From the NCBI GenBank assembly GCA_964016885.1, contig OZ024751.1, positions 8,494,001-8,558,000 of the forward strand: 64,000 bases of DNA, in the 5' to 3' direction. A model generated the notes under the pieces. It saw only the letters and a list, made by a program, of their open reading frames with translations. It did not search any database and was not told the origin of the DNA. Positions 6,783 to 7,790 of this stretch are shown here, one piece after another; position 1 is the stretch's first letter; every line of letters starts with the position of its first letter. The stretch is from Eledone cirrhosa. Taxonomy: Eukaryota. Position numbers and translations under genes: made by a program.

Positions 6783-7790
6783 ATGCTTCTTACTGAACTC
6801 TTTTGTATCTCCTACCTCTATGCTTCTATCAAATACAAAAGTAATTATTTTCTGATACCGTGTTATACAGGAAGCCCAAGAGCTGTTAAGAGGACTGAAG
6901 GGTGGACACCAAACGTATATTCCTTTTATGATACGTTTAGGGTGGAACGGTATTTTTCACACCAAAATTTCAAGAAAGCCGATTTAGAGATATTTTGCGA
7001 TATTATGAAGAAAACAGATATGTTTTTATATGCTATAATATATATATATATATTAAGATTATAGTTTAACTTTGCTCATAGTAAGGGTTAACTTTTGAAA
7101 CTACACAATAATGTTATATGTTTAATGTATATTATTTAAAGAAGGGAGCTGTTGTTTTGCTTTATACCAATAAGGTATAACTATCAAAACAAGAAGTATT
7201 TGATACTTCTATATTTCAGTTATATATTATTGATTAAATCACTGTAAATTATGACGTGTTACTGGTACGTTTGAAAGACGACAATTAAATATACTACTAT
7301 ATTTAAGATAAAAGGATAGAAATAACGTGCAGGACAGAAGTATCATGCATGCCATGATAAAAGGGAAACGGTTAGATCTGTAGGAAATGGAATTAGGGGA
7401 ATTAAGCATACATATGGATATTCTAGTGTAACTTTACATTCAATGTAAGGAAATCAATTAAATTATTCGTTTTAATATTTATTTTAGCACGGCGTTAGAG
7501 ATGTATGATAATTACTGTTATTTATGTGTAGGATATGAAATACGCCAAGGTGACTTCTTCAAGTAAATAAATATTCTTAAATTACAGGAGAAATATCAAA
7601 GTAAACCATTCATTTAATTCTAATATTAGATCACAGGATTTCAGGAGGTACCGATTCCAGTGTATGGTGCCGGGAAAATATCGGCTATATGGATTACTAT
7701 TTAGCTAGGAATGATCACATGGAATGTTTCTTCATATCAAGTTAGCGGTATCAGCAGTAAGATGTGACTACACGTGGGAGTAGTATTATA
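6783..7790 (+). pseudogene. Putative degenerate secreted-protein gene (weakly astacin-like) with 24-43 nt introns
   Basis: GT..AG AT-rich segments at 6841-6870, 6915-6940, 7196-7219, 7445-7487, 7503-7531, 7563-7587 and 7601-7629. Spliced start reads MLLTELFCISYLYASIKYKRSPRAVKRTEGWTPNGGTVFF...ILRYYEEN. No intact HExxH seen. Confidence 0.4.

Follow-up and report, generated by a model that had tools for sequence, protein, structure and literature searches.

Dicyemids provide the closest described system for the locus presented here. Introns in Dicyema have a reported median length of 27 nt, with two thirds of them under 30 nt (PMC6543705), medians of 26–27 nt are given in two accounts (PMC6543705, PMC2222250), and in a comparison of 51 animal genomes such introns were reported only for myxobolids and D. 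japonicum, with the 5′ signal reduced to GTa (PMC13644364). According to a host survey, dicyemids were present in 172 of 227 cephalopods (PMC12953835). Two other cases resemble the present one in that foreign-looking DNA is found inside an animal genome, namely the AviRTE transfer between birds and filarial nematodes, where a close associate is also the likely donor (PMC4844689), and the bacterial genes reported in Octopus bimaculoides (PMC6011040). Whereas AviRTE is a transposon and the O. bimaculoides case concerns bacterial genes, the remnant considered here is an intron-bearing, non-mobile eukaryotic fragment that is apparently dead. Well-supported animal-to-animal transfers mostly concern transposons. 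Our literature search, with most subscription papers outside its reach, returned no report of DNA transfer between dicyemids and cephalopods, and a search on chromatin diminution had no dicyemid report among the 15 papers it listed.

The remnant, which is low-copy, lies at 6783–7790 of the window, by which we mean the whole 64-kb stretch of DNA that was analyzed. With a probability of roughly 0.4, we read it as dicyemid-type genomic DNA that was inserted into a cephalopod chromosome and has been decaying since. A dicyemid donor is suggested by the intron architecture taken together with the ecology of the host. That a dicyemid gene with ultra-short introns resides in the octopus germ line and segregates in the population, as a non-mobile animal-to-animal transfer, is offered tentatively.

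Candidate introns and exon-like pieces

The arrangement of the locus is as follows (all features on the + strand).

6783..6840, +, exon-like piece 1, with an ATG and a hydrophobic N-terminus that is signal-peptide-like by eye
6841..6870, +, candidate intron 1, 30 nt, GTA..CAG
6871..6914, +, exon-like piece 2, GC 0.52, basic residues followed by EGWTPN
6915..6940, +, candidate intron 2, 26 nt, GTA..TAG
6941..7195, +, exon-like piece 3, then an AT-rich zone (about 7020–7141) with a short TA run and four in-frame TAA/TAG
7196..7219, +, candidate intron 3, 24 nt
7175..7219, +, version of candidate intron 3 with the alternative donor at 7175, 45 nt, leaving the frame unchanged and hiding the TAA at 7178
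7265..7307, +, candidate intron 4, 43 nt, GTA..AAG
7308..7444, +, exon-like piece ending in YGYSSVTLHS, with a GCATGC site at 7347–7352
7445..7487, +, candidate intron 5, 43 nt, GC 0.16, GTAAG..TAG
7503..7531, +, intron-like segment, 29 nt, whose removal disrupts the frame that the remaining seven preserve
7563..7587, +, candidate intron, 25 nt, GC 0.16
7601..7629, +, candidate intron, 29 nt, GC 0.21
7630..7767, +, last exon-like piece, which in the seven-intron frame has a TAG at 7702 and meets its first TGA at 7765

The initial annotation had described seven tiny AT-rich GT..AG segments alternating with exon-like pieces. By coordinates, eight such segments of 24–43 nt (median 29, five of them under 30 nt) were located within 6841–7629, with a GC content of 0.16–0.30. 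The contrast in composition was clear in only five of the nine surrounding pieces (GC 0.34–0.53), since exon 1 was marginal (0.33) and three further pieces were not richer (0.22–0.25). Segment 7503–7531 conflicts with the reading frame that the remaining seven preserve. All eight candidates end in AG and begin with GTA, the latter count being limited in meaning by the filter that listed the candidates, which itself required GTA. Seven of the eight acceptors read (C/T)AG with a T at −5. The AT-rich zone of piece 3 may contain one or two more introns. Removing the first two segments yields a hydrophobic start and an open frame, as had been claimed, and the open frame that follows removal of the last three was recovered when read by hand and again in a splice-aware astacin alignment.

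In line with the view that introns this short are characteristic of dicyemids, both the lengths and the GTA donor match the Dicyema introns described in PMC6543705 and PMC13644364. Relative to the genes of Dicyema sp., D. japonicum, and D. acuticephalum (PMC6543705, PMC6736024, PMC2222250, PMC13644364), the likeness comprises the median intron length (29 nt here, 26–27 nt there), the GTA donor, and the presence of several introns per gene, whereas the remnant differs in its broken frame and in its position among high-copy repeats of a gigabase-scale genome. The acceptors differ as well, those of D. japonicum being reported as a bare AG (PMC13644364) and those of the remnant looking stronger.

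Protein identity

An astacin identity had been proposed on the grounds that GSCC, YGYSSV, REIS..D..C, and C..NIGYMD loosely follow the astacin order. This proposal found no support in any test: the cited motifs sit in different reading frames, the three forward frames contain no HEXXH, the full HEXXHXXGXXH zinc motif is absent from these and from the seven-intron frame, and profile scores are those of shuffled sequence. The EXXRXDRD stretch expected after the third histidine is likewise absent, with just K-D-R behind a stop in another frame, and in place of the SIMHY Met-turn there is SSVTLHS, which has neither Met nor Tyr. Two astacin profiles (80 and 204 domains, drawn from 94 and 213 fetched proteins and seeded by a motif scan) were run by hmmsearch, tblastn, and splice- and frameshift-aware alignment in 3 + 8 + 4 settings, none of which beat shuffles. 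The best profile E value on spliced frames was 0.1, the splice- and frameshift-aware scores were equalled by 21–79 of 150 and 30–60 of 100 shuffles, and a profile score of −33 compares with −37 ± 8 in shuffles.

Astacins (Pfam PF01400; PMC9848320) nevertheless share with the remnant a hydrophobic start, basic residues before W-x-P-N, and a downstream Y-x-Y-x-S-V, and differ from it by the HEXXHXXGXXH motif, the Met-turn methionine, and a significant profile score, all of which the remnant lacks. The two shared motifs are 139 codons apart by hand count, against about 135 in the astacin profile, and a highly diverged astacin may lie behind this spacing. The astacin review reports finding no astacins in Mesozoa (PMC9848320), and our literature search returned no report of a dicyemid astacin. 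The product of the remnant was probably a secreted protein. Genes resembling those of astacins, with tails rich in cysteine, were also encountered on IMG/VR contigs (L006:286-1452, L008:253-1155, and L009:271-1638); PF01400 and PF01549 were both matched by the L006 protein, which among named sequences is most similar to nematode astacins, at about 50% identity.

General homology searches gave the same picture. Pfam matched no family on 10 gene frames and pieces, phmmer with one stop-masked frame found no match at E ≤ 0.001 among 1.84 billion representatives (a search in which short exons lower the sensitivity), a word search with 7486–7701 gave five candidates with none at E ≤ 10, and an Atlas search with 6783–6914 gave no usable match. 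Two weak matches were obtained against the PDB (E 0.62 and 2.2), and Rfam and tRNA scans were empty. A second short-intron gene was sought in 6335–6782 and 9330–10820, and nothing convincing was found. The purine-rich, low-copy stretch at 6346–6780 on the − strand lies head-to-head with the gene and contains a few intron-like segments, and no frame could be built from it; it may be more of the foreign fragment.

Intron signal and reading frame compared with chance

The best-surviving alternative, which we regard as unlikely, is that no gene is present and that old AT-rich, low-copy host DNA, such as a decayed transposon or intergenic sequence, displays GTA..AG by chance. The empty homologue searches and the astacin scores at the level of shuffles agree with this alternative, and the count of an intron motif defined post hoc does little to displace it: nine matches were found, where 2000 dinucleotide shuffles average 4.0 (P = 0.012), two of the nine overlapping, one lying in a presumed exon, and 7503–7531 being uncounted. 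Per kilobase, the locus has seven matches, the highest count in the window, and other 1-kb windows reach six. A short-intron gene model, whose intron lengths and donor follow published dicyemid values and whose base compositions were chosen by us, argues against chance, as the locus scored 29.9 and the maximum in 300 shuffles was 24.7, placing it above 300 of 300. The same model selects 7445–7487, 7563–7587, and 7601–7629 unaided. When the 226 real window-strands are ordered by the gain that introns bring, the locus comes 3rd and 4th, below two low-complexity regions. Altogether there is moderate evidence that the tiny-intron signal is above chance, allowing for one spot having been picked from 64 kb. 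As to the two findings by which the initial annotation would have been overturned, the GT-AG segments are enriched over shuffles, whereas the spliced peptides have no detectable homologues.

The reading frame bears on the same alternative. With seven segments removed and 7503–7531 retained, one codon-biased frame extends from the ATG at 6783, a model that was picked after the gene-model and intron-subset results were in hand. When eight unrelated ORFs served to train a codon-position model, the splice-predicted frame came out best in each of the first five pieces and, with 7503–7531 retained, in six of eight pieces (rank 10 of 6561); the rank of the eight-intron model was 291 of 19683. Training on astacin genes alone gave ranks of 1 of 243 for the first five pieces and 10 of 6561; training on the window's transposon ORFs alone made the predicted frame best in four of eight pieces, with ranks of 24 of 243 and 224 of 6561. 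The dependence of this outcome on the training set is compatible with chance, whereas ranks of 10 and 224 among 6561 under two trainings speak against it.

The seven-intron frame contains six TAA and three TAG codons and no TGA before 7765, and the absence of internal TGA was matched in 0.28% of 5000 shuffles, which also weighs against chance, although 32 of the 256 intron subsets are likewise TGA-free past 7700. Because no intact standard-code ORF from the ATG at 6783 extends past 7311 with any GT/GC-AG introns of 19–60 nt, the gene is broken. Four of the nine TAA/TAG codons fall in the AT-rich zone at 7020–7141, one is hidden by the alternative intron 7175–7219, and the TAG at 7702 may be the true stop of the remnant. 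About three real lesions would thus be left (two or three stops or frameshifts beyond the reach of any alternative intron), which would fit mild decay. The support for a broken gene with tiny introns is moderate.

Genomic setting, physical linkage, and depth

The window consists mostly of repeats, among them long TA arrays of up to kilobase scale, tandem units of roughly 500 bp, a LINE, and several unrelated families, to which we add, by our own reading, Penelope-like and SINE-like elements; all of it was read by eye except 45201–48199 and 58501–59799. By their shapes, these repeats appear octopus-like; a literature search with three of the repeat motifs returned nothing. The interval 6346–10817, which holds the remnant, has no self-match within the window. 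The features adjoining the remnant, given irrespective of strand, are listed below.

5100..6334, left flank, high-copy repeat that has a TA run at its end, Penelope-like by our reading; Pfam gave no relevant match
6335..7953, unbranched 1658-nt contig of run X1, depth 6.14, zero differences from the window, with the whole remnant inside
7919..8195, right flank, high-copy repeat whose ends are inverted, probably MITE-like, with opposite-strand joints at 7951/8114–8141
to about 8580, LINE-like remnant following the right flank, as read from the sequence

The X1 contig starts in the left TA run, crosses the gene, and ends 34 nt past 7919 in the right-hand repeat, so that the junction between the gene and the right repeat is present in sequenced molecules. 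Among sampled words of 6400–7900, 97–100% were present in three runs, and no other run was listed as containing them, nor any RNA data set, which speaks neither for nor against splicing; these three runs come from one sample, possibly the source of the assembly itself, and hence are not independent. Summed contig depths, which are not copy numbers, averaged 292,659 over 5100–6260 for the left flank in X1 (about 48,000 times the depth of the gene) and 84,376 over 7938–8195 for the right flank (about 14,000 times). In three other samples (X4–X6), about 3% of the RAD reads align to the stretch, nearly all of them on repeats. As the flank families are vastly deeper than the gene and abundant in three other samples, they are part of the dominant large genome; the contigs of the dominant organism total 1.38 Gb in X1.

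The depth of the gene (6.14) is about half the median of seven long repeat-copy contigs (5.55–19.2, median 11.2), and no allelic break occurs over 1.6 kb at the gene. Both features would fit an insertion in one haplotype or a Z-linked locus in a ZO female (preprint 10.1101/2024.12.09.627507). Depth in X1 drops to about 0.6 at 8712–8950, which may be a filter or a coverage hole.

Reads in the RAD data begin at 5888 (+) and 5891 (−), where a GCATGC site lies, and stop at AATT. Since the gene's own GCATGC–AATT fragments measure 47 and 69 nt, far shorter than the 227 nt of a well-sampled fragment, its near-absence from the RAD data is uninformative. A minus-strand depth of 0.46 in the bin 7293–7421 of X5, with none there in X4 or X6, corresponds to 59 letters and to at most one read. 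Fifty-nine letters is the exact distance to 7351, the expected start of a read from the GCATGC site, and the bin next to it holds 14 letters against 10 expected. This signal is a weak hint that the gene is also present in another individual.

It is improbable, in our estimation, that the window belongs to the parasite's own genome, that of a dicyemid or a comparable organism into which host-type transposons had moved and which was sequenced together with the host. The origin of all three gene-bearing runs from one sample, the 49% repeat content reported for the D. japonicum genome (PMC6736024), and the scarcity of RAD depth on the gene in other individuals would all agree with it, although the last is expected anyway from fragments of this size; a parasite may also have a depth similar to 6.14. 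Opposed to it are the several unrelated repeat families and kilobase TA arrays that fill 64 kb, those checked being abundant in the RAD reads of other individuals, and the extent of the left flank family, which at the depth of the gene would alone fill about 55 Mb against a 67.5-Mb Dicyema genome. Were it true, transposons of several families would have passed from the host to the parasite. Among the three settings that had been offered for the locus, a location in the host is favored over a parasite genome, and chimeric assembly is disfavored by the single contig that extends from within the left TA run across the right junction. The remnant is probably located in a host chromosome.

Other sources of short introns

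A real short-intron remnant of another origin, whether from a myxozoan, a microsporidian, or a fungus-like parasite, or in a non-cephalopod host, seems to us no more probable than a parasite genome. Short introns with a GTa donor are also reported in myxobolids, ciliates, and microsporidia (PMC13644364). Against this stand the frequency of dicyemids as short-intron associates of such hosts and the repeat landscape, which fits the description of Octopus vulgaris in kind, the same broad classes (LINE, SINE, Penelope-like) being listed there (PMC13282606), by description only.

Slightly less probable still is a nearly or fully intact 254-codon gene with tiny introns and a ciliate-type code in which TAA/TAG encode Gln, for instance from an apostome kidney parasite, either inserted or co-assembled. 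Apostomes read TAA/TAG as Gln. With seven segments removed, the frame leads from the ATG at 6783 to the TGA at 7765 over 254 codons with no internal TGA, and the internal stops before 7500 are TAA/TAG in eight of eight cases, which has a chance of 3–8% under random decay and is better accommodated by a Gln code. Chromidina ciliates inhabit cephalopod renal appendages (PMC4988119), and Paramecium introns are reported at 20–35 nt (PMC2222250). Tiny GTA..TAG introns and a TGA-free frame liken the remnant to Paramecium-type ciliate genes. The two 43-nt introns, however, exceed the Paramecium range, and the TAR codons cluster in likely intronic sequence, with four of nine in the TA-run zone and one more removable by 7175–7219. 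A frame with a single stop codon is also easily open, as the intron subsets passing 7700 illustrate, and three pieces translated under table 6 match no Pfam family.

That the assembly is chimeric, with a parasite contig fused to host repeats, is very improbable: the scaffold is repeat-rich and bears a 200-N gap at 47034–47233 joining two contigs, and none of the listed contigs covers the whole compared stretch, but the X1 contig runs at a depth of 6.14 from inside the left TA run through the gene into the right-hand repeat, and the sequence of the gene is nearly complete in three runs.

Proposed route of transfer and implications

Under the preferred reading, a short-intron parasite, probably a dicyemid, would have been the source of genomic DNA that was captured into a chromosome of the host, probably an octopus, for example during break repair in a germ-line cell. 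Because the introns are still present, the transfer would have taken place at the DNA level and not through mRNA or retroposition. The foreign piece would measure at most about 1.6 kb (6340–7918) between host repeats. Introns under 30 nt would not be expected to be excised by the host spliceosome, which would have left the gene non-functional from the moment it arrived, and a few per cent of later mutation could have produced two or three unhidden stops or frameshifts while leaving most splice sites legible. Transfer from parasite to host, already raised in the initial annotation, agrees with the short-intron architecture and with the junction to a high-copy repeat; the homology searches above returned no sequence match to dicyemids.

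If this reading is true, DNA of a renal symbiont can reach the germ line of its host, and cephalopod genomes may keep a fossil record of dicyemid DNA that is detectable by intron size alone. A genome-wide screen would then be possible that looks, within a long-intron genome, for places where introns under 30 nt cluster. A further consequence would be that stripping host-matching reads from Dicyema data, or parasite-like contigs from octopus assemblies, can lose real sequence. A functional effect of the remnant on the host is unlikely, as the copy looks dead.

Other repeats of the window

Related tandem arrays with units of about 430–510 bp occupy 17030–19390, 27890–28980, 50490–51750, and 56130–58390; most of the units contain an internal TA microsatellite of variable length, and some arrays flip orientation. 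Many local inverted duplications were seen, among them those at 1788–1875, 3620–4200, 4344–4745, 4774–5091, 13953–14208, and 15232–15343, often at the ends of Penelope-like elements, and could reflect either the biology of these elements or fold-back artefacts. Two Penelope-like retroelement copies with long ORFs, 84% identical to each other, lie at 488–2601 and 35409–37469, and Pfam gave no relevant match on the ORFs of the copy at 488–2601. On the − strand, 60400–62400 holds the remnant of a LINE reverse transcriptase (PF00078, E = 1.1e-25).
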